DNA of 56,529 nucleotides from Bdellovibrionales bacterium (lineage in GTDB: Bacteria > Bdellovibrionota > Bdellovibrionia > Bdellovibrionales > UBA1609): positions 1 through 56,529 of the forward strand of contig JAGRAE010000002.1 in NCBI GenBank assembly GCA_020435005.1, read 5' to 3'. This document shows positions 11,086 to 39,415 of the stretch, piece after piece. The position numbers were made by a program, and so were the translations under genes. A model generated the notes under the pieces. It had not been told where the DNA came from, ran no database searches, and saw nothing but the letters and a program-made list of their open reading frames with translations. Each line of letters begins with the position of its first letter. Position 1 is the stretch's first letter.

Positions 11086-11116
11086 TTTTCTCCTCAGAAA
11101 TTAAAGACCTAATTTC

Positions 11117-11144: not shown

Positions 11145-11213
11145 GGCTTTTTGGCTATACTTTGCCTATTTCTTGTTTCAGGGTGATACAGTTTCAATTA
11201 TTATCAAATTGAT

Positions 11214-13578: not shown

Positions 13579-14228
13579 TTTACCTCGGGCGCCTTTTTCT
13601 TTGCTGGTAAAGAAGCCGGCAAGCGCAATCTTTTTCGTACACTTGCTGCCATCTCTACTGCGTGGATTAGCGCTGGCTCAATTTCCAAAGCTTTTTCAAA
13701 CCACTCTAGACTTTCTTTAAAGTCACCCTTTGCATAATATATAGAAGCTTTCATTGATAAAGCTCTTGCAAACTCTGGATAGTTTTCAACTACTTTATCT
13801 ATCTCAATAAGAGCTCGCTCAAATTGTTTTGATCTAGCAAAACTCTGTGCCAAAAACATTTTGTCTAGAATTTCTTTTGCTGACTTTAGCTCTTCTATCT
13901 TTTTGTCATCTTTTTTTAGTCGTACATTTATTTCACTTTCAATTAATCCAGATGCAGACAGGGGTAACCAAATATTTCGTGTGATATAGTCTTCTTTCTC
14001 AATACTTAAGGTGACAAATTCGCCCGGCTTACCAAAACTATCAAAAGCTTCTTTGATTTCGTCATTTTTCTTTTCAATAGGAGTTACACCCAATTTTTTC
14101 TTTTCTCCAGACTCTGCATTAATTACCCATACCGTAGCCTTTTCTGGCTGTGTAATAATCTTCAGTTGCGTACTACAACCGAAGCTCAAAAATAAAATTG
14201 GAACTAATATAAAAATATAATTTTTCAT
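13575..14228 (-). CDS. Lipoprotein with N-terminal PEGA-like domain and C-terminal TPR repeats
   Basis: Lipobox LSFGC. PEGA-like stretch LKIITQPEKATVWVIN...LGVTPIEK...VTLSIEKEDY. TPR-like helices: ALIEIDKVVENYPEFARALSMKASIYYAKGDFKESLEWFEKALEIEP. Confidence 0.65.
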   Translation of the reverse strand: MKNYIFILVPILFLSFGCSTQLKIITQPEKATVWVINAESGEKKKLGVTPIEKKNDEIKEAFDSFGKPGEFVTLSIEKEDYITRNIWLPLSASGLIESEINVRLKKDDKKIEELKSAKEILDKMFLAQSFARSKQFERALIEIDKVVENYPEFARALSMKASIYYAKGDFKESLEWFEKALEIEPALIHAVEMAASVRKRLRLPASLPAKKKAPEVK

Positions 14229-14285
14229 TACTTTTTATATATCGCCAAAAAGCTAGAGAATATTAATTCAAGATTTTTAATCTAT

Positions 14286-14307
14286 ACTTAGTGTTTATAG
14301 ACTAAGT
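14286..14307 (-). terminator. Weak hairpin 6 nt after the stop of the 2303-aa gene
   Basis: ACTTAGT-N8-ACTAAGT (7-bp stem). No U-tract follows on the minus-strand transcript, so it is at best a weak or partial terminator. Confidence 0.2.
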
Positions 14308-14312
14308 GACAG

Positions 14313-21224: not shown

Positions 21225-21226
21225 GC

Positions 21227-24523: not shown

Positions 24524-24543
24524 TTTTATGCTCCCACATCAAC

Positions 24544-27500
24544 TTATTTTGGCACTCGAATCAAACGATTTGCCTGAAAGTCTGTCACATATAAAAAGTT
24601 GGCATCACCACTTATTGCTCCCGGTGAATCGTGCATAAAAGTACCTAACACACTACCCACACCTACACGACCTCCTTGACACCAACCTGGAGTAGAACCC
24701 GTGGCTCCACTACAACCAAAATCACCACCTGTTGGTGTAAAGTCAGGGTCAATGCCACCTTTCCAACCAATCATGGTACCCGTTGCCTTATCAATTTTCG
24801 TAATATAAACAGGTAAATTACTTCCACTTCTCGCACAGGCTTGACGGTTTAGAGTGTAAATATGAGTGCTATCCATCCACATGGACATCACACGAGAGCA
24901 CCATGTACCCCACGTGCGAACTACCGCTCTATCTGATTCCCAACTCTTTGTATAATTATCGCCCTCTGCAAATGCTGCCTCTAACCACTGGCCATTTAGA
25001 TTATATTTTTCAATTCTTCTATTTTCACCATTTGAAACATATAAATATGTACCATCTGAATGAACATCTGCAGACCAAACATCAAAACTAAAGTCTCCTC
25101 CGCGCGAAGTTGAATTTTGTCCTGCTTGTGAATTCCCATCCAAGCACCATCCGGAATTGGAAACATTAAAATCACCATTTGAAGCAGGAGTGCATCCTGA
25201 TGATGGATTCGAATTTACCCTACCAATCCAACCTTCAAAGGCACCAGTGACGGCATTGTATTTTGAGATATTATGGTAATATCTATTAACAACATAAATG
25301 CTCCCTGCCGCATAAGCAATACCTGCAGGATCACGCATATAACCATAACCATTACCTTCTTTTGCGGCACCACCCTTACACCATCCAGGTGTAAATGAGT
25401 CTACTGGCGCACCAGCGCATCCTGGATCTCCACCAGTAGGAGTATTATTAATCCTTCCAATCCATCCACCATAAGTACCATCATCTAATCTAAATCTTTG
25501 TACTCTATTCAAGTCATAATCTGTGACATACAACCAAGTGCCATCTGTAGCTAAGTCATAGGGACGATTCATGACTCCATCAACGTCGTAATCAATCATC
25601 CCGGAGTCATACCATAACCAATCGGGATAAAAGTTAGCTCCCTTGCACCAAGACGGTGAGGCCCCCATCCCTCCCATTAATAAACAAAGAGGTGATGAAC
25701 CGCCTGTTGGCTTAGATGTCATTCCGCCCACCCAGCCGACAAGTTCACCTGTGTATTTGTTTATTTTTTTAATGCGCGAACCATCATACTCTGTGGTGAA
25801 CACATAGTCGCCATGAACTAACACACCCCTTGGTGAATAATAAGATTTGTCATCAAAACCATTATCTTCGGCAGCTGTGATACGATTAGATGTCCACTCA
25901 CTAGGACTATTATCTTCGAGAGCAATGATTCCTTGTAGTTGTCCTGTTGATGCATTGAATTTCTTAACACCAGGATATCGTTCACCGCTTACAAGAATAT
26001 TGCCGTTACCGTCATAGGCAATGGCCCTAGTTCTAATAAATGAGTCAGCATCCAAACCACCTTTTCCAGTACCACCTATACACCAACCGGGAGTATTTTC
26101 ATTGGAGTTAAGAGTATTACAACCAACGTTTCCAGACATACCTGAGTTGTTTGCGACCTTTCCCATCCAAGACTCTATAAGACCGGTGAAATCTACTTTT
26201 AAAATTCGTTCTTCATCAGCCGCATATATTTTTGTACCATCTGTTGTAATTCCTGTTAGTCCCTTCCAATTATGATTCATATTGGGGAGAGCTTCGATAA
26301 AGGCTCCCGTGTCCTTATCGTATGTGTTGATATGTGAACCATAGTTATTGTCTGCAACATACAAAGTTGTTCCAATAATCATTAAGCGTGTGGGTGCATA
26401 AACTCCACCCGCAAGGCCACTATGATTGTAAGGATGAACTCTTTTTGAAACTCCACCAAAGCACCATCCTGGAGTTAACGTATCAGCTGGTGCTGAAGAG
26501 CATCCTGCCGCTCCGCTAGAAGGTGTCGTGTGAACCATACCAATCCATCCAGCAAAAGCTCCTGTTGTTTTATCAAAACGATTTATTGCAGATTGTGATG
26601 CTACATACATATAAGTATCATCCACTACCACGCCGCGTGGATTAACCATGCGACCATCACCTGTTAAGTTATAGTTGCCGTTAGTCCAACCCACATTTCT
26701 TAAACGTCCATCTATACACCAACCAGGTAGAGGTGTATCGTTTGCAGCTACTGTACAATTTGGTGGACCGCCAGGTCCCGGCCCTGTGGGTTTCACGTTG
26801 TATAAGCGACCAATCCATCCGGCAAAGGCGCCGGTTTCAGCTTCATAGCGATTAATTGAATCTCTTCCATTTTGAACGACGTAAATATAATTTTCATCAG
26901 CAGCAATATCGATTGGGCTACTCATTGCTCCTTCTGGAACCTCATATTCTCCTCCGGCTTGAGAAATACCTCCTGTACACCAACCTGGAAGTTCATCATT
27001 GGTGAGAGTATTAATACAAAGTGCTGGACTAGGAGTAACTAAATTACTACCCGTAGAACCAACACCGTTTTCATGTTGAATTCGACCCATCCATCCTATG
27101 TATTGATTGTTTTGGTAATCAAATTTAGTAACTTTGTGTTTGTAGTAATCTGCTATATACATATATCTATAGTCTGGTGAAAATTCGATATCATATGCTG
27201 AGAAAATTCCATCATAACGGGCCGCCACTGGTTTGATGCCCATTCTGACGGGAAGCATGTCATTCACGCCCCCATTTTTTGTAGCCGTACCAATCCAGCC
27301 CCAATCAGCGTTAATCGTCCAGGCTAATGTTCCTTGTGTAAGGATCGCTGCATTGTCTGTAACTGTTAGAGTAAGAGTGTCTGGGTATTGACCGACAAAA
27401 TAGAATTGTTTTGTTCCCTCTCCCGCCGCAAAATTTAAACTATTTATTATTGAAGAGCAGTTTAAATCTGAATAAAACTTACCTGCTATGCCCTGTCCCG

Positions 27501-30366
27501 ACAAATTTGCAGTTATTGGATTTACTGCATTTGCCGGATTGCCTAAACCATCCAACGTATTAACATCAAAAGGTCCAACACATTCACTCGTATTAGAACT
27601 TGAACCACCTGGGCTAACAATTTCAAAAGCCGAGGGAGTAATTGTTAATTGTAATACTGAAGAAGCGCTAAGATTACCTGCAGGATCAGTTATTGAGATA
27701 TTTAAAATTTCTGCAGCCACCCCTTTATAATATACACCAATTGAAGAATTCCCTCCGGGAACTGTTAAGCTTGTGGCTGAACCTGTCCCACCACAAGTAG
27801 GTGAAGTATAAAGTTTTCCTGTTGCTGATACACCATTAATACCATTTATGTTTAAATTAAGATTGCTATCTGTAGGCACAGAATTCCCGAGAGTGTCTTT
27901 CAGTGTAATTGTAAATACGGTTGAACACTGGCCAGCAACAACTGTTGATGGTCCGGTTAATTCAATATCCGAAGCCGTAAAGATAACTTCTTGTGGAAGT
28001 GAAGTCGTTTGTATATTCGCACCAGGATCAGATATATTAATATTTAATGTTTCTCCTTTAGGGTTTTTTAAATAAATTGTCGTTTCACTATTTGGTCTTG
28101 GATTTGCGGCTAATATCAAATTATTTGGATCTAACCCTATAGTGCAAGTATCATTAGAATAAACTTCAACTTGTGAACCCACAATGCCTGTTATCAGGCT
28201 TGTTGTTGGTAAGAAAAACTCGCCAAGACTTCCATCTTCAGCTAAAGGAGTAATTGTAACGGCTGTTGAACATTGTCCTGATGGAACTTTTAATGTACCA
28301 CCTCCAGATGCTTGCGCCAGCATACGCATTTTATTTGGGTTCACACGCACGTTTAGTAGACCGGGGCTTAACACAGCTGAAGTATCTGTCGCAGAAATAT
28401 TAAGTGATTCAACCTTATCACTTTTTAAATAAACTGTTCTAGTGTCTGTACCCGGAGTAAAGGTGACCGAGGTTCCAAGTGGACTGCCACCACAACTGTT
28501 ACTACTATACAACACGGCTGATCCCATGCCACTGAGTAAAACTGTAGCGTTTTGAATAGCTTTGGCCGGGTTGCCCCCCAAATCCTGTAACTGAACAGTT
28601 ATGGCTGTACTACAACTTCCAGATAAGACATCTGCCGGTCCAGTTAAGCTCACGGCCTGTGGAACACCGGCAGTAATATTAAAACTGTTACTATATGCTG
28701 GTGTGAGAGAGCCTGAGCTCGCCACTAAATTGTAACCCGTCTTGGTTATATCTATTCCTAGATCTGTAAATGTAGCAATTCCATTTACCGCACTGACAGT
28801 AGTTTGTCCGGAAAGTATTGCACCGCCTACATTTGAGGCTATTGACATTGTAATCGCTAATGAAGAACTAGCTCCACTAACAACGGTGTTGCCTTGTTGA
28901 TCTTGAATGGCAACTTTAACATCATTAAGGCCAAAATCACCAGCTGGAGAATTTATGGGTTGAACTGAGAAGGCTAACTTATTCGCTTCACCTGCAACAA
29001 AAGGTGCAAGAGTTTGGACATCAGTTAGACCTGCAGGTGAGGATACTGAAAGAATTCTTGCTGGAGGAACATTGTCAGCAACAGTTGTGGAAATCGAACC
29101 TGATGTTTGCCCTAAGTTATCTGTATTTAAAAAAGGTTGAATTAAAAAATCTCCAATAATATTGGAAGCAAACTTTGGTTTTATACCTGGCACAGGATTG
29201 CCAAAGCTATCATTTAAGGTAATAGTCACAGTGTAAGTATCTGATCCATTGGCAACTAAAGCTGTCGCTGGAGGTACTGCAGGATCAATGGCTATTAGTG
29301 ATTGTGTCGGATCAACATTTCCAGGTGAAATCATAAATTGATTTGATTCAACATTTAACTGAGTTGTTCCAAAAAATTGTGCAGAAGTGTCCTCTTTAAT
29401 AGCATTTAATATTTTAGCGCCCGACTCTTGAAAAAAGATATCAGTAAACGTCGCAACCCCACCGACAGCATTTATAGCTACTGTTCCACGGACAGAGCCA
29501 ACCGTGGGCGTGTTTACTGAAACTTCAAGTGTGATGAGTGCTGTAGCGTCTGGTCCACCTGTTACAAGATTATCATTTTCATCAAGTAACTTAATAACAG
29601 GTTGCTGGCTTAATGCTTCACCTGCGGCACCGTTTCCTGGTTGCGTTTCAAATACAATTTGAGATGCCTTACCCAAGGATTGAAATGAAATAGTTTCTTC
29701 ATTGTTATCAGCATAACCCTCAACAACAATACTGGCTTTACAAGTATAAGTTAAGTTGGGAGTTAAATCCTCAATTACTTTTTTGTTTAAACTCATGTTG
29801 CGGATATTGGCCATTAATACATATTCGCCATTAGCAGATGTTTTACAATGGATATTGATCTCAAGGGCTTCCCCCTCAGTTACACTACTAAACTCCACTT
29901 GTGCAGATGAAGAACTTAAAACCGTAACTGATTTAATTCCACCGTATGGAATGCCTACCAAATCATTTGTGTTCACATCTTCTTTGCCATCAGCATCCAC
30001 CGCTCTTACGCGGAATGAATAATAAAACCCTTCTGATAATCCAGCAATTGTCGCAGAATCTCGAGTAGCATCTACAGTTTTGATTAATTTTGGTAAGGTT
30101 GCCACAGTAACATCGTAAACATTGTAAGCCACAACATTTTTGTTTTCAGTCGGCGTCCATTTTAAGTTAACTTTAGAAGAAGCAATGGTCGTTACTGAGT
30201 CTAAGCCCTTGAAGTTGCCATAGGTTTCCCCTGTCGCTGGCACTTCAACTACTGATTCCTCTTTAGGCAAACAACCTGCGACGGAAAATAAGAAAAAGAA
30301 AGTTAAGATATTTACTTTTAATCTCATGTTGTTCTCAATTTTTTTTCTAATATTATTTACTTTCAT
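24544..30366 (-). CDS. 1940-aa lipoprotein: 2 FN3, ~8-9 invasin/Big-type Ig domains, ~11 NHL-like blades with GWIG/PGWC Cys-pair inserts
   Basis: Lipobox SVAGC. SD GGAGAGG lies upstream of the ATG at 30366. The N-terminal FN3 pattern includes VNLKWTP...YNVYD...YYSFRVRAVD. The middle region resembles Big_1 domains (e.g. FSVQPINSPAGDFGLNDVKVAIQDQQGNTV). The C-terminal repeats are in a sub-feature. Confidence 0.8.
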   Translation of the reverse strand: MKVNNIRKKIENNMRLKVNILTFFFLFSVAGCLPKEESVVEVPATGETYGNFKGLDSVTTIASSKVNLKWTPTENKNVVAYNVYDVTVATLPKLIKTVDATRDSATIAGLSEGFYYSFRVRAVDADGKEDVNTNDLVGIPYGGIKSVTVLSSSSAQVEFSSVTEGEALEINIHCKTSANGEYVLMANIRNMSLNKKVIEDLTPNLTYTCKASIVVEGYADNNEETISFQSLGKASQIVFETQPGNGAAGEALSQQPVIKLLDENDNLVTGGPDATALITLEVSVNTPTVGSVRGTVAINAVGGVATFTDIFFQESGAKILNAIKEDTSAQFFGTTQLNVESNQFMISPGNVDPTQSLIAIDPAVPPATALVANGSDTYTVTITLNDSFGNPVPGIKPKFASNIIGDFLIQPFLNTDNLGQTSGSISTTVADNVPPARILSVSSPAGLTDVQTLAPFVAGEANKLAFSVQPINSPAGDFGLNDVKVAIQDQQGNTVVSGASSSLAITMSIASNVGGAILSGQTTVSAVNGIATFTDLGIDITKTGYNLVASSGSLTPAYSNSFNITAGVPQAVSLTGPADVLSGSCSTAITVQLQDLGGNPAKAIQNATVLLSGMGSAVLYSSNSCGGSPLGTSVTFTPGTDTRTVYLKSDKVESLNISATDTSAVLSPGLLNVRVNPNKMRMLAQASGGGTLKVPSGQCSTAVTITPLAEDGSLGEFFLPTTSLITGIVGSQVEVYSNDTCTIGLDPNNLILAANPRPNSETTIYLKNPKGETLNINISDPGANIQTTSLPQEVIFTASDIELTGPSTVVAGQCSTVFTITLKDTLGNSVPTDSNLNLNINGINGVSATGKLYTSPTCGGTGSATSLTVPGGNSSIGVYYKGVAAEILNISITDPAGNLSASSVLQLTITPSAFEIVSPGGSSSNTSECVGPFDVNTLDGLGNPANAVNPITANLSGQGIAGKFYSDLNCSSIINSLNFAAGEGTKQFYFVGQYPDTLTLTVTDNAAILTQGTLAWTINADWGWIGTATKNGGVNDMLPVRMGIKPVAARYDGIFSAYDIEFSPDYRYMYIADYYKHKVTKFDYQNNQYIGWMGRIQHENGVGSTGSNLVTPSPALCINTLTNDELPGWCTGGISQAGGEYEVPEGAMSSPIDIAADENYIYVVQNGRDSINRYEAETGAFAGWIGRLYNVKPTGPGPGGPPNCTVAANDTPLPGWCIDGRLRNVGWTNGNYNLTGDGRMVNPRGVVVDDTYMYVASQSAINRFDKTTGAFAGWIGMVHTTPSSGAAGCSSAPADTLTPGWCFGGVSKRVHPYNHSGLAGGVYAPTRLMIIGTTLYVADNNYGSHINTYDKDTGAFIEALPNMNHNWKGLTGITTDGTKIYAADEERILKVDFTGLIESWMGKVANNSGMSGNVGCNTLNSNENTPGWCIGGTGKGGLDADSFIRTRAIAYDGNGNILVSGERYPGVKKFNASTGQLQGIIALEDNSPSEWTSNRITAAEDNGFDDKSYYSPRGVLVHGDYVFTTEYDGSRIKKINKYTGELVGWVGGMTSKPTGGSSPLCLLMGGMGASPSWCKGANFYPDWLWYDSGMIDYDVDGVMNRPYDLATDGTWLYVTDYDLNRVQRFRLDDGTYGGWIGRINNTPTGGDPGCAGAPVDSFTPGWCKGGAAKEGNGYGYMRDPAGIAYAAGSIYVVNRYYHNISKYNAVTGAFEGWIGRVNSNPSSGCTPASNGDFNVSNSGWCLDGNSQAGQNSTSRGGDFSFDVWSADVHSDGTYLYVSNGENRRIEKYNLNGQWLEAAFAEGDNYTKSWESDRAVVRTWGTWCSRVMSMWMDSTHIYTLNRQACARSGSNLPVYITKIDKATGTMIGWKGGIDPDFTPTGGDFGCSGATGSTPGWCQGGRVGVGSVLGTFMHDSPGAISGDANFLYVTDFQANRLIRVPK
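24547..27340 (-). repeat. NHL-like beta-propeller blades; 8 of ~11 carry a GW(I/M/V)G ... C ... (P/S)(G/S)WC insert (approximate bounds)
   Basis: Eight GWxG motifs (YIGWMGRI, FAGWIGRL, FAGWIGMV, IESWMGKV, LVGWVGGM, YGGWIGRI, FEGWIGRV, MIGWKGGI). Each is followed within ~20-35 aa by a Cys and then LPGWCTGG, LPGWCIDG, TPGWCFGG, TPGWCIGG, SPSWCKGA, TPGWCKGG, NSGWCLDG or TPGWCQGG. Blade cores resemble NHL units (YVAD..N.RI.KFD..TG). Confidence 0.65.
27341..29676 (-). repeat. ~8-9 tandem bacterial Ig-like (Big_1/invasin-like) domains (approximate bounds)
   Basis: A ~95-aa period with a recurring (A/S)..(L/I).F..QP......G......P.(V/I).(L/I).D..GN.V and a Cys in most units (SGSCSTAITVQLQDLGGNP, SGQCSTAVTITPLAEDG, AGQCSTVFTITLKDTLGNSV, TSECVGPFDVNTLDGLGNP). 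Confidence 0.6.
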
Positions 30367-30428
30367 AACCTCTCCAAAATACGTACAACACTTACAAGGC
30401 TTATCTTTATTATTAATATACTATGATC

Positions 30429-30457
30429 CTATCGGCTTAAGTCGGGACCAAATAAAG
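30429..30457 (-). promoter_or_regulatory. Promoter-like motif CTTTATT-N14-GCCGATAG (sigma-28-type -10) upstream of the 1940-aa gene
   Basis: Read on the minus strand. The -10 half matches GCCGATAA at 7/8 and lies 62 nt upstream of the ATG. The upstream half is identical to that of the motA and lon sites. A TAAAGTCT box overlaps or abuts it (rc of 30456-30463), but its 19-nt spacing is non-canonical. Confidence 0.35.
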
Positions 30458-30516
30458 ACTTTAATGGGGTTTTACTAAAAAATAATATAGAAATGTGTTT
30501 TATAATGAGACAAATA

Positions 30517-31560
30517 TTAGAAGCTGAGTCCTAAATTGAGACCAAGAAGCTCCAAAACCACTTCTTCAAAGCCAGAAACAAAAGTATGGTTAGAGTAGGC
30601 AAGTTCAAGATTCATCTTCCTGAGGTTACTCAAATTAAAATTTATGGCTGGCTTTACTTTAAAAGCCCGGTCCTCGGTTAAAGAAATTTTATCATATGTT
30701 GCATATGTAAATTCAAAAGAGTAACTAAAATTGCGGCTTTGATAATATTCGCTTCGCAAAGATAAGCTCGGCCCATATAAGTTTGAAAACCCAAAATCAG
30801 CCCCATGAGAGTACATACCAACAGTACTCACTCCTGCCATGAGTCGACTTCTCCAAAGAGGTGAGCTGAACAGTTTAACCTTGTATGTTAATTGTGCATC
30901 TGCTTCATAAACCTGAGGATTTAAATACTCTGGCTCTGATTGAAATGTAAAAAAAGAAATTTGAAAGTCAGCCAGAATTCCCCATTTATTACCTTTTTCT
31001 GGAGATAAGTAATTAACTCCGATCAACAAATTTTTTCCATTAAAAATTCCATATGATGTCTGTTCATAAATAATATTTCCATAGCCCAAAGAAAAGGCCA
31101 CTGAATCAAACGGTGAAGTTATTTTATATTCTCTTGCTTCAGGAGCAAACAAATAAACAGTCTCTACTTTTTTTTCACCATCTTCGTTTTGAGCTACAAA
31201 GGTAACTTCACTGATTCTAGAATTTAAGTAAGCATGTACCGTGTAAATATTGGGATCAGAAGTACTTCGCACTGGAACTTTATTGCCAACAAACAGCTTC
31301 CACCCAGGCTCGTTAAACTCGACAAGCAATCGCACCAAGGGGCGCATGCCTTCTTCACTTGGCACCATAAAAACGGGAGTTTTCAATGTTTTAAATTTCA
31401 TTTGTGTTATGAGTTTATCTTCACTCTTTTGGCGCAATATATGACATAACCAAACAGCTTTTTGTGCTTGCAAGACTTTTTGTTGAAACTTTTCGTCCTT
31501 TGCAAGAGTATTTAATGAAACAAAAAAGCAAAAGACACACAAAAAGATACGTGAAATCAT
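30517..31560 (-). CDS. Outer-membrane beta-barrel protein with ~130-aa N-terminal periplasmic domain
   Basis: Signal peptide ...VSLNTLA. The C-terminal ~200 aa show alternating amphipathic strands rich in Y/F/G/S, and the terminal residue is Phe (LGLNLGLSF), the classical OMP C-terminal signature. Confidence 0.6.
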   Translation of the reverse strand: MISRIFLCVFCFFVSLNTLAKDEKFQQKVLQAQKAVWLCHILRQKSEDKLITQMKFKTLKTPVFMVPSEEGMRPLVRLLVEFNEPGWKLFVGNKVPVRSTSDPNIYTVHAYLNSRISEVTFVAQNEDGEKKVETVYLFAPEAREYKITSPFDSVAFSLGYGNIIYEQTSYGIFNGKNLLIGVNYLSPEKGNKWGILADFQISFFTFQSEPEYLNPQVYEADAQLTYKVKLFSSPLWRSRLMAGVSTVGMYSHGADFGFSNLYGPSLSLRSEYYQSRNFSYSFEFTYATYDKISLTEDRAFKVKPAINFNLSNLRKMNLELAYSNHTFVSGFEEVVLELLGLNLGLSF

Positions 31561-31598
31561 GTGCTTAGAATATGCAACTTATACTTAGTTAACAAGTC

Positions 31599-32438
31599 TT
31601 ATTTTTCTTTTGCCGGTTCTCTTTGATTTAAATCTTGATAATAAAGGGTAAAACCTTGATAAATCTTTTTTGGATTTATTATCAATTGAGGATTGTTTCT
31701 CCAGATTTCTTTCCATTTATCTGAAGTTCCATATATCTTATTAGCAATTGACTTTAATGTATCTCCTTTTTGAATGAGATAGGGCTTTCCCTCTTTTTTT
31801 ACATAAACGTATTTTACATTTTCTATCGTTAATTCAGTGCCAACGTGCATTTTTGTATAATGCTTCATTTTATTTCTATTTAACTTGTAGATTTCCTTCC
31901 ACCTTAAATAGTTGCCATACTTTTCAAAGGCAATTTTCATAAGTGTATCACCAAGTTTTACTATGTACGTAACTGTTTTTCCGTCCTTGCTATCAATTTT
32001 TTTCAGTATCTTGCCCATAGATAGAGGGCCTTCATTTTTTGACGAAATTTTTCTTGCTAGTGGTCCTTTTCCATCTAAAAGTTTTTTCGGAGGTAATTGT
32101 TGTGGAAGCACTTGAGTTTCGGCAATTTCAGTTTCATTTTCAGTTTTCTCTTCTTTTAATTCTTCTGATTGTGGTGCAACTTCTACATCCTTAGCTCTTA
32201 ACTCTAGCAAGTTGGCAGAGGCATCCTGTGGCGCTAAGTAAATAGTTCCATTTTCACTAATTTCTGCAATTTCTTGAGCAATTTCAACCGGAAGCGGAAG
32301 AGCTTTTTGTGCTGGACTCAACTGCTGACGGAAGCCAGGTTCAACGTCTCGATGATCAGCACCAAAAAAGCTAGAACAGCCAGTAAGGCTAAGCAAAAGT
32401 ATTAAAATTAGTACGAAAGTAAGTCTGTATTTTCCCAT
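31599..32438 (-). CDS. Lipoprotein with acidic linker and two LysM peptidoglycan-binding domains
   Basis: Lipobox LSLTGC. LysM 1 is YIVKLGDTLMKIAFEKYGNYLRWKEIYKLN; LysM 2 is YLIQKGDTLKSIANKIYGTSDKWKEIWRNN. Confidence 0.8.
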   Translation of the reverse strand: MGKYRLTFVLILILLLSLTGCSSFFGADHRDVEPGFRQQLSPAQKALPLPVEIAQEIAEISENGTIYLAPQDASANLLELRAKDVEVAPQSEELKEEKTENETEIAETQVLPQQLPPKKLLDGKGPLARKISSKNEGPLSMGKILKKIDSKDGKTVTYIVKLGDTLMKIAFEKYGNYLRWKEIYKLNRNKMKHYTKMHVGTELTIENVKYVYVKKEGKPYLIQKGDTLKSIANKIYGTSDKWKEIWRNNPQLIINPKKIYQGFTLYYQDLNQREPAKEK

Positions 32439-32495
32439 CTTTGGTACTATCGGAGAAAAAATACAGACCTTCAGCCTTATCTAAATTTCTAGATC

Positions 32496-35400
32496 TTAGT
32501 CCCGTGGTGGAAGTGGCGGCAAGGGTATTAATGTGTCAGAATGAACCAACTTTAATATACTCTTTATCTTTAATTGAACTCGAGAATTAGCGTCTTCTAC
32601 CATAATTTTTAGAGAGTCTCGTTGTCTTACAAGATTCTCTAATATTTCTTCCAAGCGAGGCCTATCAGTCGAATGAAGTGGCGACTTTCCTAAATCAATT
32701 TCAACTTTTGAAATTTCTTTCTCTGTTATTTTCAAGTATTGCTTTAAAGGATCTAAGCTGGCTAAGCCTTTTAACTCATTGATTATAGCAATAGCCTGTT
32801 CTTTAATTAGCTGCTTTTCTTTATCAATTGATTGCGTATAAAGGTTCAGCTGTTTTTCCCTTTGTGAAATGTGATTATTTTTAACACCTAGCTTATCTTC
32901 TAATTTTTCATTTGTAGCTTTAAGTCTTTTAATTTCTTCCTTCAAACCATCTATCTCTGAATACTTATGACCTATCGCCTCGTTTACTTTTAATTTAACT
33001 GTATTTTCATTTGCTGATTCTAAATCCATCTGTGACTGTGTTAATTCATCAATCCGCTTTTTGTATTTATTAATTGTCTCTTCAAGCTCAAATTTATGTT
33101 TACCACGTATTTTCTGTAGTGAAATTTGATGTTGTTCTTGAAGTACTTTAATCTGTTCGTCTTTTTCTTGAACTATCTTCTTCTCTGTTTTTAGAAAGTC
33201 TGCTTCAATACTCTCTATTTTCTTATCATATCTTGCTATTACTTCTTTTATCTTTTCTTTTGCTTTTATATCTACCGCTTGCACCTTTAATGTATGTGCT
33301 TCTTGAGTACTTTGATATACTTCTTCTTGTTCTGATTTAAACTTGGCAATTTGCGTTTCATATTCACCTGATAATCTATCTATCTCTGTCTTATATAATG
33401 CTCTAGCTTCATCAAGTTCATTCTGAGACTTTTCTTCAAGCCATCGATATTTCTGATTAAACTCCATCTCTTGCTTGTTTATCTTCTCTTCCAGAATGTT
33501 GCTTATCTTATTAATTTTATCTTCGTAATCACTCACATAACTTGTTATTTTCTCATTGTAGTAATTGTGTATTTCGGTTTGTTTATCGTGATGTTGATCT
33601 TGAAGCGATTGGATTTTTTTACTATATTTTTCTACAATCTCTGTGTTTTCATTTTTTAAATGAGTCAGTTGTTGAGAGTAAAAGTGTTTGTCGCGATGGG
33701 CCTCTTCTAGAAGATCATTATTTCTCTTTTCTAGTTTTGTGTTTTTTAGGCTAAGCTCTTCATTTATATCTTTAAACTTGGCTCTCTCTTGTTTTAGATT
33801 TTTTTCTAGTTCTTCAATCTTCCCTTTTAGTTCTATTATTTCATACTTTTGCTGATTAACTATTTCCTCGAAAGCCTTTTTTTCGCTTATCGCAACATTT
33901 GCTTCTTCTTGTAAAGATTCAATTTGATACTTTAAGTTTACGATTTCATTTTCTAATACGCGAGACTTCTCTAAGTAATCTCCTCTTACTTCATCAGCTT
34001 GCGTTGAAATTTTTCTGTTTTCTTCAATATATTCGAAGATTTTCAATTCTGAAGAGTTGTATTTATCTTGTACTTCAGCTAGCTGCTCAGATAAAGCATC
34101 TACTTCCATCGCCCGCTGTTTACTCACATTGGCTTGGTCGCTGAGCCGGGCCTGCAAAGACTTTATTTCTCTTTCCGTTTGTTGTTTTACGTTTTCATAC
34201 TCAGATTTTAATTGGCTTAATTCTTCACGAATTTTCTCGTGCTTCGATCGCAAGTCGACCAATTCATTTTTTTTCTCGCTTATAATTTCATTTTGGTTAG
34301 ATATTTTATCTTCTAAAGTATTAACTTTAATTTGATGAGTGTTTATTTTGTCATTTAACGTTTGTCTCAGCTGAGTTAGTTCGATTGTTGATTTTTCATA
34401 ATTCTTTTGAAGCACTAATATCTCAGAAGTCTGATTCGAAATTAGACTTTCTTGATTCGAAATTTGCGCTTCAAACTCATCAATAGTAATTTGACTGTTG
34501 TTTAATAAATTGTTATGTTTTTTCTGTAAGTCATTATATTCTCTGAAAACATCATCATATTTTTCTCTAATCTCAATTAAACTTATGCTTTGTTCTTCTA
34601 ATTTACTTTTTTGACTGTTAATCTCTTCTTCTAGTTCGCATACAGTACTACTATATTTGCTTGTGATATTGTCAATTTCTTGAGATAACTTCTTGTTTTC
34701 AATTTCGAGCGTGCTTACTTTTTGTAAGTTAACATTTAAAATCTCTTCTTTTTCATTTATTTTGATTGTGTAATTTTTAATTTCGTTTCTTAATTCAGAA
34801 ATGAGTTGTTCATACTTAGACTCATTATTTATTTTATCTTTCTTTAAACTTCCTAGCTCTATACGAAGAGCATTTATATTTAACTCAAGTTTGCTAATGT
34901 TATTAGTTTTCTCTTCCATCTTTGAAAGTAGATCTTGTTTTTCTTTAACAAGTGACGAGTTTTCATTCTCTATTCTTTCTAAGGTTAGTTTATTCGAGTT
35001 CAGTTGTGTTTCCATAATCTGAACTTTTTCTTTATAGCTGCTTTTTAAATCTTCAATCTCATTTTGCAAACCCGAATGCTTTTGTTTAAATTCGACTATT
35101 ACTTTTTCTTTTTCTAGAAATTCATTATTGAAACTTTCAATTCTGCTCGCTAAAGCTTGTTTTAGTTCATCATTTTCTTCAGCTTGCTTTTCTAGATCAG
35201 CTTCTGTATTTTTTAATTTATTTTCCAAATCACTTTTTGTTGTATTTAGCAGCTGTTTTAAACTGCTCAATTCCTTGTTTAGTGTTTTGTTCTCCTCATT
35301 AATCTTTTTAAGTTCAACTTCCAAAGCTCTCTTTGCTTTTTCCACATCAATAAGGCTTTGCTTCAGCTGTTTATGCTCGACGTGCAATACGTCATATATT

Positions 35401-36389
35401 TCTTTTAATGTGTTATGTTCTTCTCGTGCTAGAGTAAGCTCAGATAAAAGATTTTTTCGCTCCTCTTTTAATAAATTTTTTTCTTCTTCTAGTGGCTTTA
35501 TAGTGAGATCGCTTTGCTGCTTCAACTCATTATATTCTTCACTTTTTTGCTCTAACTGGTTTTGCAGCTCTAAAGCTAGGGCTTCTTTTGCTTTAAGTTG
35601 TTCATTAAGTTTTTCTAGATTTTCTAAATACTTTTTATTCTCAATATCAGTCTTAATTTTGCTAAGTTTGTCATTAAAGTTAAGTTCTAATTCTTGCTTC
35701 TGTTGTGTAATACTCAGACGAAGTTGCTTTACTTCATTCTCCTTTTGCAATGCTTCGTCTGCTAAGTCTCTAATTTCTCGCTTTAAGTCTTGAACTTGAG
35801 ACTCGTAGTTGGTGATGAGCTGTTTTTTGTGCTTGGCTTCGTTTTGGATTTTAAATATTTGATCTTCTAATAGACTGTTTTTCTCTGAAACTTCTTTCAA
35901 TGATTTTTTTGCCTGATTTTTTAATTGCTCATATTTTTTTAAAGTCTCTTCTCTTTCGTTTTTTACTTTGTCAATTATTGACCTCAGATTGTTAACACTT
36001 TCTTGCATATTCTTTATGTGTTGACTTTTCTGATTAAGAAGTTTTTCCTGCCTTTCAATTACAAGCTGGTGATTTATAATTTTTCCATTCTCTGAAGATA
36101 GTCCTCTGTTTAATTCATTTATTCTTTTGTACTCGTTCTGAATTTTTAATAGCTTTTGTGTTAACTCTTTTACTCGTGATGTATTGCTTTCGATAATTTT
36201 GTTTTGCTTGCTCAAAGTTAATTTGTTGCGCTGTATTTCTCTATATAGTTGTTCTTGCTCCACATCTAGACTTGTTCCTGTTGTGGGGGCACGACTTCTC
36301 ATATCTATAACTTTATTTTCATTTTGATTTTTCTCATCAAACTCTAATTTTTCTTCATTGCAAAAATTTAACTTATCAACGTCTTTCAT
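32496..36389 (-). CDS. 1297-aa cytoplasmic coiled-coil protein with proline-rich C-terminal tail
   Basis: No signal peptide or TM. Almost the whole length is K/E/L/N/Q-rich heptad-like sequence. It ends in IPLPPLPPRD. The ATG overlaps the stop of the upstream GYF gene (TAATG at 36387-36391). Confidence 0.75.
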   Translation of the reverse strand: MKDVDKLNFCNEEKLEFDEKNQNENKVIDMRSRAPTTGTSLDVEQEQLYREIQRNKLTLSKQNKIIESNTSRVKELTQKLLKIQNEYKRINELNRGLSSENGKIINHQLVIERQEKLLNQKSQHIKNMQESVNNLRSIIDKVKNEREETLKKYEQLKNQAKKSLKEVSEKNSLLEDQIFKIQNEAKHKKQLITNYESQVQDLKREIRDLADEALQKENEVKQLRLSITQQKQELELNFNDKLSKIKTDIENKKYLENLEKLNEQLKAKEALALELQNQLEQKSEEYNELKQQSDLTIKPLEEEKNLLKEERKNLLSELTLAREEHNTLKEIYDVLHVEHKQLKQSLIDVEKAKRALEVELKKINEENKTLNKELSSLKQLLNTTKSDLENKLKNTEADLEKQAEENDELKQALASRIESFNNEFLEKEKVIVEFKQKHSGLQNEIEDLKSSYKEKVQIMETQLNSNKLTLERIENENSSLVKEKQDLLSKMEEKTNNISKLELNINALRIELGSLKKDKINNESKYEQLISELRNEIKNYTIKINEKEEILNVNLQKVSTLEIENKKLSQEIDNITSKYSSTVCELEEEINSQKSKLEEQSISLIEIREKYDDVFREYNDLQKKHNNLLNNSQITIDEFEAQISNQESLISNQTSEILVLQKNYEKSTIELTQLRQTLNDKINTHQIKVNTLEDKISNQNEIISEKKNELVDLRSKHEKIREELSQLKSEYENVKQQTEREIKSLQARLSDQANVSKQRAMEVDALSEQLAEVQDKYNSSELKIFEYIEENRKISTQADEVRGDYLEKSRVLENEIVNLKYQIESLQEEANVAISEKKAFEEIVNQQKYEIIELKGKIEELEKNLKQERAKFKDINEELSLKNTKLEKRNNDLLEEAHRDKHFYSQQLTHLKNENTEIVEKYSKKIQSLQDQHHDKQTEIHNYYNEKITSYVSDYEDKINKISNILEEKINKQEMEFNQKYRWLEEKSQNELDEARALYKTEIDRLSGEYETQIAKFKSEQEEVYQSTQEAHTLKVQAVDIKAKEKIKEVIARYDKKIESIEADFLKTEKKIVQEKDEQIKVLQEQHQISLQKIRGKHKFELEETINKYKKRIDELTQSQMDLESANENTVKLKVNEAIGHKYSEIDGLKEEIKRLKATNEKLEDKLGVKNNHISQREKQLNLYTQSIDKEKQLIKEQAIAIINELKGLASLDPLKQYLKITEKEISKVEIDLGKSPLHSTDRPRLEEILENLVRQRDSLKIMVEDANSRVQLKIKSILKLVHSDTLIPLPPLPPRD
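32499..32528 (-). other. Proline-rich C-terminal tail IPLPPLPPRD of the coiled-coil protein
   Basis: Direct translation of the last 10 codons. This is the only Pro-rich stretch in an otherwise helical protein. Confidence 0.8.
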
Positions 36390-37711
36390 TACATTTCCTT
36401 TCTAGGAGGCATTCCGCTAGAGTTTATAAACTGACTTTTCATATGATCTAATTTTTTACGAGTACTAGAAATTTTTTCTTCTATGGCTTTGTAATAATCC
36501 TTAATAACATCATTTTTTTTATCTTCGCTATTCTGATATTGATTTAATTCAACCAATCTTTGCCCGATTTCTCGCATATTCATATAAAGTTGGTTGTAGT
36601 ATAGCTTATTAAAAAATTCAGGATTATCGAGCTCTTGAAAAGCATCCATAATCGGTTTTTGTAAACCCATCCATTCTTTGCTATATTGTGTCCAGCGATA
36701 TCCATACAACTTTCTATAGTTTGTAATTGCGCTTTTTAGCTGGCTTTCGAGTGCTTCTATGATTTGAGTTAACTCGATTAGCTCTGTGTTGGCACTTTCT
36801 CTAAGCTCTGCATGATAGACATTTAATTGACTTAGATAATTTACATCTTGGGGGCTAACGCCATTAAACATCTGATTGCTGAATATGTTCTTTTTGTCAA
36901 AAGTACAGCTTATGCAAGATACATCAATTTTATATTCACCCTGAGGTAATGGCTTGCCATTGGTTAGGAATAATTCTTCAACTTTAATAATATTATCAGT
37001 TAATTGCTTTTTAATCTGAAAGTTAACAGTATGTGCGCCAATTAAGGTTTCAGGAATGCCAGTTAGTTTTAAAAGCAAAGTTTCCCCAACTTCTATATTA
37101 GTGCCAATAAAAATTATTGGGCGTGCACTACCACTAGACTTAAGCAGTAAATGGAGTTTTGGCCCTGAAAACAGCAGACTTTTGCCAGGCGCACTCTCTA
37201 AGTATTTCATATCTTTACTATTTAACTCGGGAAATGAATAACTCGGTTTCTTCGAACCAAATAAGCTTACAGCTATTATGAAAACAAATAAAAGCGCACT
37301 ACCAATTTGAAAGTTCCGGTTGGCTTTAAATTCTTCAAATAATAACTTCCACCAGGGTGTTGATAAAGGCTCTGAGACATCCGTTGAATTTGATTCAACG
37401 TTGTTATTCAAAGCTTTATTTATATTTTCTACTTTTATGTCTTCCAGAAATATAGGTTTATTTCTATTGATAAATCTTAAATCTAGCCTTAGCTTACTTT
37501 CAAACTCATCATCAGTTAAGTCTTTATCTGCAATGTTTGCATAAGCTCTAAATGATTCTATTTCTCCTATTTTCGTCCACTCGTTCATGCCCGGTTGCCA
37601 AAAATAATGTCGTGTCGAAATGAGTCCCTGCGAAATTAGATCTTTAATCTCATCAAAACACAAAGGTCCATAGTGTTTATTTGTTCTATAAATAAATCCT
37701 TTTTCTTCCAT
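36389..37711 (-). CDS. GYF_2-domain membrane protein (cytoplasmic GYF, one TM, ~290-aa C-terminal domain)
   Basis: N-terminal FIYRTNKHYGPLCFDEIKDLISQGLISTRHYFWQPGMNEWTKIGEIESF matches the bacterial GYF_2 (DUF4339) pattern W/F.Y...G...GP.....L......G.I.....W..GM..W. TM helix FQIGSALLFVFIIAVSLFG at about residues 134-152. Confidence 0.7.
   Translation of the reverse strand: MEEKGFIYRTNKHYGPLCFDEIKDLISQGLISTRHYFWQPGMNEWTKIGEIESFRAYANIADKDLTDDEFESKLRLDLRFINRNKPIFLEDIKVENINKALNNNVESNSTDVSEPLSTPWWKLLFEEFKANRNFQIGSALLFVFIIAVSLFGSKKPSYSFPELNSKDMKYLESAPGKSLLFSGPKLHLLLKSSGSARPIIFIGTNIEVGETLLLKLTGIPETLIGAHTVNFQIKKQLTDNIIKVEELFLTNGKPLPQGEYKIDVSCISCTFDKKNIFSNQMFNGVSPQDVNYLSQLNVYHAELRESANTELIELTQIIEALESQLKSAITNYRKLYGYRWTQYSKEWMGLQKPIMDAFQELDNPEFFNKLYYNQLYMNMREIGQRLVELNQYQNSEDKKNDVIKDYYKAIEEKISSTRKKLDHMKSQFINSSGMPPRKEM
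37550..37696 (-). other. GYF_2-like domain coding segment
   Basis: Residues 6-54 of the 440-aa ORF; see the parent CDS. Confidence 0.65.
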
Positions 37712-37823
37712 ATCATTATTAGATTACACGAGTATCTTATATTAAAAAAACATTCTCTAAAAACTGTTATGACTAAGATATTAGTTTTTATTAAATACTG
37801 ATCTAAAGCCAGTATGAACTGGA

Positions 37824-37851
37824 CTTTATTCTGCGATTATTTTTCCGATAA
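37824..37851 (+). promoter_or_regulatory. Promoter-like motif CTTTATT-N13-TCCGATAA (sigma-28-type -10) upstream of motA
   Basis: The -10 half matches GCCGATAA at 7/8 and lies 28 nt upstream of the SD-supported ATG at 37880. The upstream half and spacing are the same as at the lon site (49891). The upstream half is not the canonical TAAA box. Confidence 0.35.
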
Positions 37852-37879
37852 CTATTCTGGACTACTAAAAGGAGATTGC

Positions 37880-38674
37880 ATGAATTTATCACCACTTTTT
37901 GGTTTATTTTTGGCCATTAGCACGGTACTTGCAACTATCTTCATGTCTACAAAAACACCACTTGTTTTTTTAGATTCACATGCTGCTGTAATTGTTATTG
38001 GTGGGACTACTGCCGCAGCCCTATTGAGTTTCTCCGGCAAGAGCATGCTAGTTATGTTGAAAGTATTTTTTGGTCGCGTGTTAAAAGGTACTCTAAATCG
38101 CTATGAAGAAGTCATTAATGAGATTGTTGAATTATCTAGAGGTTATAGGGACAACCCCAATTATTTAATAGAAAACGTTGAACAAATAAAAACACCCTTC
38201 CTTAAAGAAGCTATAGAACTCACTAACGCCGGTGGTTTATCACCCAAAGATATAGATGTTGTTTTAATGAAAAGAGCTCATACCCACTATAAACGATACG
38301 AAGAAGACTCACATATGTTTGCTACTCTTGCAAAATTCCCCCCAGCTTTTGGGTTGTTAGGAGCCGTTATTGGTATGATAACTCTTATGCAAGGTCTAGG
38401 TGGAGCAGATGCCATAAAAACAGTTGGACCTGCCATGGCCGTTGCACTTGTTGCAACAATGTATGGTATTGCTATAGCCAACTTTATTTTTATCCCATTG
38501 GGTGAAAATTTAGCTAAGTATAACAAAGCTGACAAAATTATAAGACAAATGGTTATTGATGGTGTGAAGCTAATAAGAGCTAAAAAACATCCTCTTGTGG
38601 TTGAAGAAAATATCAAGAGTTATTTAATTGCATCAGAAAGACAGGCTATTGAACACAATAAAGATGCGGCTTAA
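37880..38674 (+). CDS. motA: MotA/PomA-type stator channel protein (MotA/TolQ/ExbB family)
   Basis: Four predicted TMs with a ~100-aa cytoplasmic loop between TM2 and TM3, which is the MotA topology rather than TolQ/ExbB. C-terminal core: PPAFGLLGAVIGMITLM...MAVALVATMYGIAIANFIFIPL. I prefer the ATG at 37880 (SD AAAGGAG, 5-nt spacing) over the track start at 37814. Confidence 0.8.
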   Translation: MNLSPLFGLFLAISTVLATIFMSTKTPLVFLDSHAAVIVIGGTTAAALLSFSGKSMLVMLKVFFGRVLKGTLNRYEEVINEIVELSRGYRDNPNYLIENVEQIKTPFLKEAIELTNAGGLSPKDIDVVLMKRAHTHYKRYEEDSHMFATLAKFPPAFGLLGAVIGMITLMQGLGGADAIKTVGPAMAVALVATMYGIAIANFIFIPLGENLAKYNKADKIIRQMVIDGVKLIRAKKHPLVVEENIKSYLIASERQAIEHNKDAA

Positions 38675-38683
38675 GGAAATTTA

Positions 38684-39415
38684 ATGTCAACGGCAGAAAA
38701 ATTAAAGCCAGAAGAAGCATTTGAAGAAGAAGACGAAGTCATTGAAATTATTGATTTCGATGAAGGAGCAAAGGGACACGAAGATTCTGAAGGCATCTGG
38801 CTTCTCTCATATGCCGATATGATGACTCTCTTAATGGGCTTTTTTGCATTGTTAACGTCTATGGCCTCATTTGAAACGGAGAAGTTCGCTCAAGTTGGTA
38901 GTCAAACAGCAGAATACTTTGGTGGCGTAGTTGATAAAACCATGGAACAACTTGGCGATGAAATCTCTGAGGTTATCAAAGCAAAGGGTCTAGATGCTCA
39001 AGTGAAGGTTGAAAGAACATCTTCACAAGTTAGCATTACCTTTGAAGGAACTTTATTTTTTGAGTTAGGTTCCGTAGCACTAAAGGAGACAGCACAAGAT
39101 TTGATGTCTGAAATAATTAACATTCTTGGTGAAAAAGCACCCAACCACAAGTTTCTTATTGAGGGGCATACCGATGATTTGCCAATGAGTAAAGGATTAA
39201 TTGCCAGCAACTGGGAGTTGTCATCTCTTCGTTCAGCGGCTGTCGCTCGACTTTTTGAGAAAAAAGGCTTTGCTAGAAAACAAATTATGACCATTGGTTG
39301 GGGGGAAACAAGACCCCTAGTAAGTAATCGTGATAATACTGGACAAGCAATTAAAGAAAATCAGGCAAAAAATAGGCGAGTTGTTTTAAAGATATTAAAC
39401 CATCATCCATTATAA
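38684..39415 (+). CDS. motB: MotB-type stator protein with OmpA-like peptidoglycan-binding domain
   Basis: TM segment WLLSYADMMTLLMGFFALL carries the conserved Asp. C-terminal OmpA-like motifs: GHTDDLP...SNWELSSLRSAAVARLF...NRRVVLKI. It starts 9 nt after motA. Confidence 0.82.
   Translation: MSTAEKLKPEEAFEEEDEVIEIIDFDEGAKGHEDSEGIWLLSYADMMTLLMGFFALLTSMASFETEKFAQVGSQTAEYFGGVVDKTMEQLGDEISEVIKAKGLDAQVKVERTSSQVSITFEGTLFFELGSVALKETAQDLMSEIINILGEKAPNHKFLIEGHTDDLPMSKGLIASNWELSSLRSAAVARLFEKKGFARKQIMTIGWGETRPLVSNRDNTGQAIKENQAKNRRVVLKILNHHPL

Follow-up and report, generated by a model that had tools for sequence, protein, structure and literature searches.

Only one bacterial GYF_2 domain, that of GltJ, has a known ligand (PMC11135422), and the locus described here raises the question of whether a second such domain has its ligand encoded in the very next gene. 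The locus lies in the window, by which we mean the whole 56,529-nucleotide stretch analyzed (contig JAGRAE010000002.1 of the Bdellovibrionales bacterium assembly GCA_020435005.1). On its minus strand, a 440-aa membrane protein with an N-terminal GYF_2 domain and a single transmembrane (TM) helix, hereafter GYF-TM (36389..37711), is encoded directly ahead of a 1297-aa coiled-coil protein, hereafter the rod (32496..36389, minus strand), whose last residues read IPLPPLPPRD. The original prediction, made from the letters of this DNA, was that the proline-rich tail is a candidate ligand of the adjacent GYF domain. We favor, with a confidence somewhat above even, the reading that GYF-TM is a membrane anchor and the coiled coil a cytoplasmic rod whose PxPPLPP tail binds the GYF domain as AglZ binds GltJ; the case is built on sequence conservation and on analogy. 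The pair would then be a second, far simpler candidate receptor-ligand system, with a seven-residue conserved C-terminal motif encoded beside its receptor, and the binding code of a widespread, poorly understood bacterial domain would become testable with peptides.

The pair was followed across 14 comparison loci, in which presence and absence of the window genes were scored as a co-occurrence/co-absence matrix by tblastn. L001 (a Bdellovibrionaceae metagenome-assembled genome [MAG]), L002 (a metagenome contig), and L003 (a distant member, 20% identity) were seeded with the GYF protein, and L004 to L014 were seeded with orthologues of the divergently transcribed MotA-like gene described below. 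Most loci were thus reached via MotA, and adjacency to MotA in the MotA-seeded loci is by construction. Ten loci bear the pair: the window, L001, L002, L005, L006, L008, L009, L010, L013, and L014.

A GltJ-type GYF_2 domain on a single-pass membrane protein

The N-terminus of GYF-TM matched Pfam GYF_2 (PF14237, formerly DUF4339) over residues 6 to 53 (37553..37696, minus strand; profile positions 2 to 49 of 50) with a score of 33.6 bits against a gathering score of 25.8 (E=3.3e-8). When a profile of 30 family GYF domains was compared with the PDB, there was one strong match, over the whole domain, to the solution structure of the GltJ/AgmX GYF domain (7z3c_A, E=5.2e-13). Foldseek found the same structure, 7z3c, from the AlphaFold2 (AF2) model of the domain, with probability 1.0 and a target template-modeling score of 0.56; the modeled domain had per-residue confidence (pLDDT) scores of 82 to 95. 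The GYF-like domain of the original prediction therefore passes sequence-profile and structure searches alike, and it is this domain that we propose as the receptor of the proline tail. G15, P16, W38, and W45 were invariant, and G41 nearly so, in 26 to 30 family members.

Eukaryotic GYF domains (CD2BP2 type, PF02213) bind PPG-type proline-rich peptides and carry the signature GP[YF]xxxx[MV]xxWxxx[GN]YF. With these, the window domain shares the fold class and the idea of proline-peptide recognition, and it differs from them in signature, in model match, and in the GltJ-type binding surface. It reads HYGPL...WQPGMNEW, the G-Y-F signature is absent, and the eukaryotic model gave no match at E<=0.1, GYF_2 alone being reported.

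The AF2 model of the entire protein, built on 26 family members (pLDDT 84), shows a GYF fold (residues 1 to 57), a disordered stretch (77 to 132), a TM helix (132 to 150), a beta-sandwich (186 to 283), and a helical bundle (290 to 430). The helix coincides with a hydrophobic stretch, FQIGSALLFVFIIAVSLFG (residues ~132 to 150; 37262..37318, minus strand), and the sandwich and bundle together make up a C-terminal domain of ~290 aa (36392..37261, minus strand). Pfam and AF2 agree in this with the layout first proposed, namely a GYF_2-like N-terminus, one TM helix, and a ~290-aa C-terminal domain. The linker is unconserved, with pLDDT <50. An exhaustive HMMER scan of 1.84 billion representatives placed 538 clusters in the GYF-TM family at E<=1e-3 and 265 at E<=1e-10 (50%-identity clusters); nearly all of the listed matches are 410 to 650 aa long, the GYF core was present in 140 of the 150 best matches, and the 26 aligned members have a common GYF-linker-TM-C-terminal-domain architecture. 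From this architecture, we infer that the GYF domain is cytoplasmic and the C-terminal domain periplasmic. Because the protein has one TM helix and no signal peptide, only residues 1 to 131 can be cytoplasmic, and within these the GYF domain is the sole conserved, folded element. For the periplasmic domain, Foldseek of the full model gave no significant PDB fold and returned only generic Ig-like sandwiches and spurious TRPML matches.

A separate feature was noted at the extreme C-terminus of GYF-TM (residues 433 to 440; 36392..36415, minus strand), where family members carry the motif G-[ML]-P-x-R-x-G-L, here G-M-P-P-R-K-E-M. P435 is nearly invariant in the 26 family members (alignment A1), a regular expression for the motif matched 55 of 150 representatives, and the motif was absent from L008, L013, and L014. 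A second short peptide ligand, on the opposite and putatively periplasmic side of the membrane, is one possibility for this motif.

A long coiled-coil rod overlapping the anchor gene

The two genes overlap in a TAATG stop/start (36387..36391, minus strand); the junction reads ...GAAATGTAATGAAAGAC, with one base common to the TAA of GYF-TM and the ATG of the rod, in agreement with what had been read at first. The rod is rich in E, K, L, Q, N, and I, and 92.6% of its residues fall in 28-aa windows with a strong a/d hydrophobic excess, versus 27% (maximum 40%) in shuffled sequences, so the description of an almost purely coiled-coil 1297-aa protein stands. The further statement that the proline tail is its only non-helical feature had to be revised: the N-terminal ~17 to 45 residues also lack heptads and are unconserved, and the AF2 model also breaks at residues 1209 to 1212 (SLDP) and 1236 to 1242 (a G-K-S-P-L-H-S loop). 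Five of the 10 prolines of the rod lie within the last nine residues. No signal peptide was found in any of the nine full-length partners, consistent with a cytoplasmic location. As one uninterrupted coiled coil, probably a dimer, the window rod would be ~180 nm long.

The rods of the ten loci measure 465, 825, 941, 983, 1048, 1063, 1199, 1297, and 1350 aa, plus that of L005, whose gene is split by a scaffold gap. They align with one another at the composition-expected level only, and the N-termini of the nine partners could not be aligned. In Pfam and NCBIfam, the window rod gave sub-threshold coiled-coil-type matches only; identity as a crescentin, an intermediate filament, or an SMC protein was considered and rejected as sub-threshold coiled-coil noise. 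Partner alignments, alignment A8, and AF2 all delimit a conserved C-terminal domain of ~110 aa (32499..32828, minus strand), composed of a helical hairpin and the tail. This domain is 31 to 52% identical to six of nine partner tails by global alignment and 21 to 51% identical by tblastn in eight loci, with no tblastn match in L013. AF2 modeled the last 201 residues of the rod as a long helix followed by a confident hairpin (117 to 139 and 147 to 191 of this segment) and, at the end, 10 residues outside any helix (pLDDT ~58). The tail domain had no Pfam or PDB family match.

Co-occurrence of the anchor and rod genes

In 10/10 loci, a gene for a cytoplasmic coiled coil comes after the GYF-TM gene. 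The nine measurable pairs have gaps of -35 to +25 nt (the scaffold gap interrupts L005), and the GYF-TM proteins of these related loci are 23 to 36% identical, the more distant ones only 23 to 28%. The four loci that keep MotA/MotB orthologues and lack GYF-TM (L004, L007, L011, and L012) also lack the coiled coil (4/4); L007 further keeps the LysM, barrel, and 1940-aa lipoprotein genes described below. Across the 14 loci, GYF-TM is the only component of the cluster that tracks the presence of the rod, L003 excepted. On the minus strand between the GYF-TM, coiled-coil, and LysM genes, no terminator-like site was found.

In L003, the GYF-TM gene is followed by a gene for a 446-aa, A/E/K-rich coiled coil with a signal peptide (L003:2795-4135, plus strand). 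A coiled-coil neighbor recurs there but, as its predicted signal peptide indicates, in the other compartment.

Conservation of the proline tail and of the proposed receptor surface

Within the C-terminal ~110 residues of the rod, the proline motif is the most conserved block. The window motif, P-L-P-P-L-P-P, spans residues 1289 to 1295 (32505..32525, minus strand) of the tail peptide ...SDTLIPLPPLPPRD and is the proposed GYF ligand. The corresponding tails are LPLPPLPPSFDESLE in L001, IPVPPLPPQPGKKS in L002, AALPPLPPQLDL in L005, VPYPPLPPS in L006, IPLPPLPPKEEDDSSGARV in L008, VPVPPLPPTES in L009, IPVPPLPPGKVEPSETEIPSS in L010, MPTPPLPPS in L013, and LPTPPVPPKSGV in L014. PP-[LV]-PP ends all ten rods at <=23 residues from the C-terminus, preceded by P-x in nine (A-L in L005); the first P and the central L of the motif are each kept in 9/10 partners. 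When the last 135 residues were aligned, ten columns were invariant, four of them the prolines of PP-x-PP. In a six-frame translation of the 56.5-kb window, PP[LV]PP occurs exactly once, at the rod tail, and PPLPP was found only at rod tails in six-frame translations of L001 to L011. The expectation that partners would keep a proline-rich C-terminus as the rod sequence drifts was thus borne out, since 10/10 pairs end in PP-[LV]-PP on rods that range from 465 to 1350 aa and share no alignable N-terminus.

This pattern bears on whether the tail has a partner at all. Prolines commonly terminate helices, and the motif lies 2 to 16 residues from the C-terminus, a frequent site of degrons, so that the tail might cap and end the helix or serve as a C-terminal signal for stability or degradation, with the GYF domain binding something else. 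A cap or degron, however, needs no four invariant prolines at fixed spacing, with conserved flanking hydrophobics, in sequences of 21 to 52% identity. The residues after the motif vary both in length (2 to 16) and in sequence, which argues that the extreme C-terminus itself is unrecognized, and strict co-occurrence with a domain of proline-binding type would have to be coincidence. We therefore consider a partnerless tail highly improbable.

The proposed receptor has conserved positions of its own. In the nine coiled-coil-linked GYF domains of alignment A5, which leaves out the L008 domain (WQPK in place of WxPG), R9, H13, G15, P16, H35, W38, P40, G41, and W45 are invariant. R9, H13, H35, and P40 sit in or beside the three N-terminal strands and are missing from distant proteins of the L003 type and from GltJ. 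A signature combining R-x-x-x-H-[FY]-G-P and H-x-x-W-x-P-G is found in ~20 of the best 150 family matches, the top-scoring ones. As a lead taken from these alignments, R9, H13, H35, and P40 are candidate specificity residues.

Comparison with GltJ-AglZ and other known systems

The original prediction was correct that GltJ carries a GYF domain and that AglZ is a long coiled coil, and direct binding of the two has been published (PMC11135422). Isothermal titration calorimetry and nuclear magnetic resonance showed binding of micromolar affinity between the GltJ GYF domain and a proline-rich sequence in AglZ (PMC11135422). That sequence comprises residues 123 to 213, between the receiver domain and the long coiled coil, and is bound via the beta-sheet of the GYF domain, not the canonical eukaryotic surface; the CD2 peptide is not bound (PMC11135422). 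Loss of the GltJ GYF domain or of the AglZ proline-rich sequence impairs focal-adhesion assembly in vivo (PMC11135422; PMC11761067). Outside the Myxococcales, the surveyed ZnR-GYF proteins likely have ligands that vary, and they show no correlation with any AglZ-like partner (PMC11135422).

The window pair resembles this system in having a bitopic inner-membrane protein whose GYF_2 domain is cytoplasmic, a coiled-coil partner that is cytoplasmic, very long, and equipped with a proline-rich element, an associated proton-channel motor of the MotA/TolQ/ExbB superfamily, and a cluster with TPR proteins, outer-membrane barrels, and large surface proteins. There are also differences. Unlike GltJ, whose periplasmic domain is TonB-C-like, GYF-TM has a beta-sandwich and helical bundle, with no TonB_C in Pfam and no TonB-like Foldseek match; its GYF domain starts at residue 6, leaving no room for an N-terminal zinc ribbon, and an MglA-binding linker is not evident. 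The rod is a long coiled coil like AglZ but has no receiver domain (no Response_reg match), and its only proline cluster is a 7-residue C-terminal motif, in contrast to the ~90-residue region of AglZ. The GYF-TM and rod genes, unlike those of GltJ and AglZ, are adjacent and overlapping. Their neighbors are MotA/MotB with plug and OmpA domains, a LysM lipoprotein, a barrel, and giant fn3/NHL/FG-GAP proteins, rather than the AglRQS motor of the Agl-Glt system, and no MglA or MglB gene was found in the window. Orthology to GltJ and AglZ was rejected, since the zinc ribbon, receiver, TonB-C-like domain, and AglRQS motor are all missing. The pair is accordingly a non-orthologous variant of the interaction type known from GltJ-AglZ, in which binding is predicted from sequence and by analogy. 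Because the neighboring motor is of the MotA/MotB type, not Agl/Glt, any link to gliding is conjectural.

Bd0075 of Bdellovibrio bacteriovorus, a 965-aa protein with a cytoplasmic N-terminal GYF-like domain, a TM helix, and periplasmic TPR domains (PMC12034629), is likewise a bitopic membrane protein of the Bdellovibrionota with its GYF-like domain in the cytoplasm. The partner tested for it, Bd0474, was bound via the periplasmic domain, and an adjacent coiled coil was not described (PMC12034629). Bd0075 was rejected as a counterpart of GYF-TM because of its differing architecture.

Proposed docking of the tail on the GYF domain

All of the tests run, of tail conservation and by profile search, supported the idea that the tail is a candidate GYF ligand. 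A contact between the two is the most economical reading because the GYF domain is the sole conserved cytoplasmic element of GYF-TM and the C-terminal domain with its tail is the sole conserved element of the rod, and because, among the genes of the cluster, GYF-TM alone tracks the rod in the sampled loci. It is also favored because the rod, which has no signal peptide, and the GYF domain would occupy the same compartment and because AF2 shows the last 10 residues as a non-helical extension of a confident hairpin.

The pair might then work as follows. Translational coupling and gene order suggest that GYF-TM and the rod are made together, and the architecture of GYF-TM suggests that it inserts with its GYF domain in the cytoplasm. 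The rod, whose heptad pattern is clear, would form a coiled coil of ~60 to 190 nm depending on the lineage, of a length and oligomeric state that we can only infer. Its C-terminal hairpin would present a short, exposed, non-helical tail, and this PxPPLPP tail would bind the beta-sheet of the GYF domain, a step that conservation, co-occurrence, and the GltJ precedent make rather probable. Docking would tether the rod to a stator-centered membrane complex, and the periplasmic domain of GYF-TM would, from synteny only, couple this complex to the MotA/MotB-type module. Because rod length varies threefold, a tether or scaffold is suggested rather than a ruler; both this scaffold role and the association with MotA/MotB are presumptive. 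The design, in which GYF/proline recognition anchors a ~60- to 190-nm rod to a membrane motor complex, may be recurrent and not peculiar to Myxococcus.

The conservation of the rod terminus is not confined to the tail, and this opens the possibility that the complex forms through a different contact, with the rod hairpin binding the GYF domain or the TM/juxtamembrane region and the tail recruiting a third partner, e.g., the cytoplasmic part of the stator or of the FliG-like protein described below or an SH3/WW-like protein encoded at an unlinked site. Conservation does extend over the ~100 residues before the tail (E43, P52, Y56, E63, L91, and Q94 of the alignment are invariant), which form the confident AF2 hairpin, and both a cytoplasmic FliG_MC-like domain and a MotA loop are encoded by genes of this cluster. 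Nevertheless, the sole experimentally characterized bacterial GYF_2 domain binds a proline-rich sequence (PMC11135422); the genes for the stator, FliG-like, TPR, LysM, and barrel proteins can all be found where the rod is missing (in L004, L007, L011, and L012), none of them tracking the tail; and the cluster yielded no further proline-recognition domain. We regard this arrangement as unlikely.

Several points nonetheless weigh against docking of the tail on the GYF domain. The conserved hairpin before the tail could be the real interface. The AglZ ligand is a proline-rich region of ~90 residues and is likened to PxPPLPP here for its proline-richness, and the GltJ GYF domain, which lacks the clade-specific R9, H13, and H35, may bind in a different mode. 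All ten loci come from one phylum and share common ancestry, so the conservation counts are not independent events, and seven of the nine comparison loci with the pair were reached via MotA orthologues. In L003 (20% identity), finally, the coiled coil encoded after the GYF protein is secreted and has no proline tail, and GYF domains of this family thus do not always have a proline-tailed partner.

A MotA/MotB-like stator pair beside the anchor gene

Divergent from GYF-TM is a gene for a MotA/PomA-like stator subunit (37814..38674, plus strand; Pfam MotA_ExbB), annotated as a 286-aa open reading frame. Its homologues are mostly ~260 to 275 aa long and align to ~82 to 92% of this frame; judging from these alignments, translation probably begins at the internal ATG at 37880 (MNLSPLFG..., 264 aa), which would make the divergent intergenic region ~168 bp. 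It is followed by a MotB-like subunit with a plug and an OmpA-type peptidoglycan-binding domain (38684..39415, plus strand; Pfam MotB_plug and OmpA). The Pfam domain models pass, whereas the NCBIfam equivalogs score under their cutoffs (PomA, 137 versus 341; MotA, 129 versus 340; MotD, 132 versus 283). Zorya (ZorA/ZorB) or another defense system was considered and rejected, the MotA-like protein having no PADLOC match and the MotB-like protein only generic ZorB/MotB similarity.

Both in the window and in each of the three GYF-seeded loci, GYF-TM adjoins the MotA/MotB-like pair; in L003 and in the MotA-seeded L010, the order MotA-MotB-GYF lies on one strand. This adjacency bears on what the rod does. 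The pair might instead be a membrane-attached, crescentin/Ccrp-like cytoskeletal filament for cell shape or stiffness that works independently of the MotA/MotB cluster and is next to the stator genes only through inherited synteny. The rod has weak matches to Rod_CreS (21.5 bits) and Filament (17.6 bits), the rest of the cluster can do without the pair, and different genes lie downstream of the pair in L006 and L014. The two matches are, however, far under their gathering thresholds (100 and 40, respectively), as is usual for any coiled coil; GYF-TM adjoins MotA/MotB in the window, L001, L002, the 20%-identical L003, and, in another orientation, L010; and threefold length variation in an unconserved rod suits a tether better than a shape-setting polymer. 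A cytoskeletal role, which we think quite unlikely, concerns what the rod does and is compatible with docking of the tail on the GYF domain.

A membrane-anchored FliG-like protein and the wider cluster

The window DNA is chromosomal and low in GC (~31 to 42%), with housekeeping genes on both sides (an AsnS/AspS-type synthetase, acyl-CoA carboxylase, TatC, GrpE, DnaJ, and Lon), and the nearest relatives of its genes are from Bdellovibrionales/Bdellovibrionaceae MAGs and genomes. Directly downstream of the rod gene on the minus strand is a LysM lipoprotein gene (31599..32438; Pfam LysM, lipobox LTGCSS), syntenic in L001, L002, L005, L008, L009, and L010, and next to it is a gene for a putative outer-membrane beta-barrel of 347 aa (30517..31560, minus strand), with a signal peptide, the C-terminus ...LGLSF, and no Pfam family, that is syntenic with LysM in seven loci. 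Farther along the same strand are a 1940-aa lipoprotein that has fn3 and Big_1 domains and repeats the motif G-W-[IV]-G (24544..30366; NHL matches are faint and in orthologues only), a 1098-aa FG-GAP protein (21227..24523), a 2303-aa fn3 protein (14313..21224), and a 971-aa beta-propeller protein (8170..11085). All four are predicted to be envelope or surface proteins, and the first three have orthologues in related loci.

Also downstream in the window, besides a TPR protein and a 205-aa protein, is a membrane-anchored FliG_MC-like protein of 591 aa (11803..13578, minus strand). It has a signal peptide or N-terminal TM helix, a ~155-aa periplasmic part, a TM helix at ~178 to 197, and a cytoplasmic FliG middle- and C-like domain. 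A profile of eight orthologues matched FliG_MC structures over ~215 residues (3ajc_A, E=2.5e-9; 1lkv_X, 6e-9); the L012 orthologue passes the Pfam FliG_M gathering threshold, and the window protein itself had no Pfam match. Orthologues are encoded at L004:7570-9417, L005:999-2741, L006:12197-13957, L011:7564-9432, L012:7525-9420, L013:12147-13886, and L014:12877-14523, and wherever the family was detected, a MotA/MotB-like pair was present too. In L004, L011, and L012, the FliG-like gene is upstream of the stator genes within a single gene run; in L005, L006, L013, and L014, it lies downstream of MotB, on the opposite strand. In Bdellovibrio-type genomes, TPR, ~620-aa, and ~190-aa genes are directly upstream of MotA on the same strand; the run with the ~620-aa gene is contiguous with MotA-MotB in L004 and L012, and two genes lie between MotA and MotB in L011.

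The cluster thus resembles the flagellar stator MotA/MotB (PomA/PomB) and FliG in its MotA_ExbB, MotB_plug, and OmpA domains and its FliG middle- and C-like domain. Unlike flagellar FliG, the FliG-like domain here forms the cytoplasmic end of a membrane protein of 591 aa, and no further flagellar genes were found in the window. We found no description in the literature of a stator-like pair with a membrane-anchored FliG-like protein away from flagellar genes. One tentative proposal, to which we lend limited credence, is that the ~31-kb cluster (8170..39415) is an undescribed non-flagellar, envelope-spanning machine of the Bdellovibrionota in which the GYF-TM/rod pair has reinvented GltJ-AglZ independently. 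In such a machine, the MotA/MotB-type stator would act on the membrane-anchored FliG_MC-like protein; the TPR, LysM, and outer-membrane barrel proteins would couple the stator to the giant surface proteins for surface movement or adhesin transport; and, in one sub-lineage, the GYF-TM/PxPPLPP-coiled-coil pair would be the cytoplasmic platform. The pair draws attention to this conserved MotA/MotB and FliG-like cluster in predatory bacteria, and the stator-associated cluster may be a more novel object than the pair.

Other genes were noted near the stator genes of individual loci. In L004 (1789-4250), L011 (4364-6783), and L012 (4367-6804), Bdellovibrio-type genomes which lack the GYF/coiled-coil pair, a ~360-aa protein and a VWA-domain protein of ~450 aa are encoded just upstream of the TPR, FliG-like, and MotA genes; these two genes are divergent in L011 and L012 and on the same strand in L004, and a SpoIIE/HAMP phosphatase gene lies near them in L004 and L011. 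In L008, ~1 kb past the MotB-like gene, there is an Agl/Glt-like set (12544-20819, plus strand) consisting of a TolQ/ExbB-like gene, two ExbD-like genes, and genes for a 996-aa TPR protein, an outer-membrane barrel, and another TPR protein, so that the two motor systems are neighbors in at least one relative.

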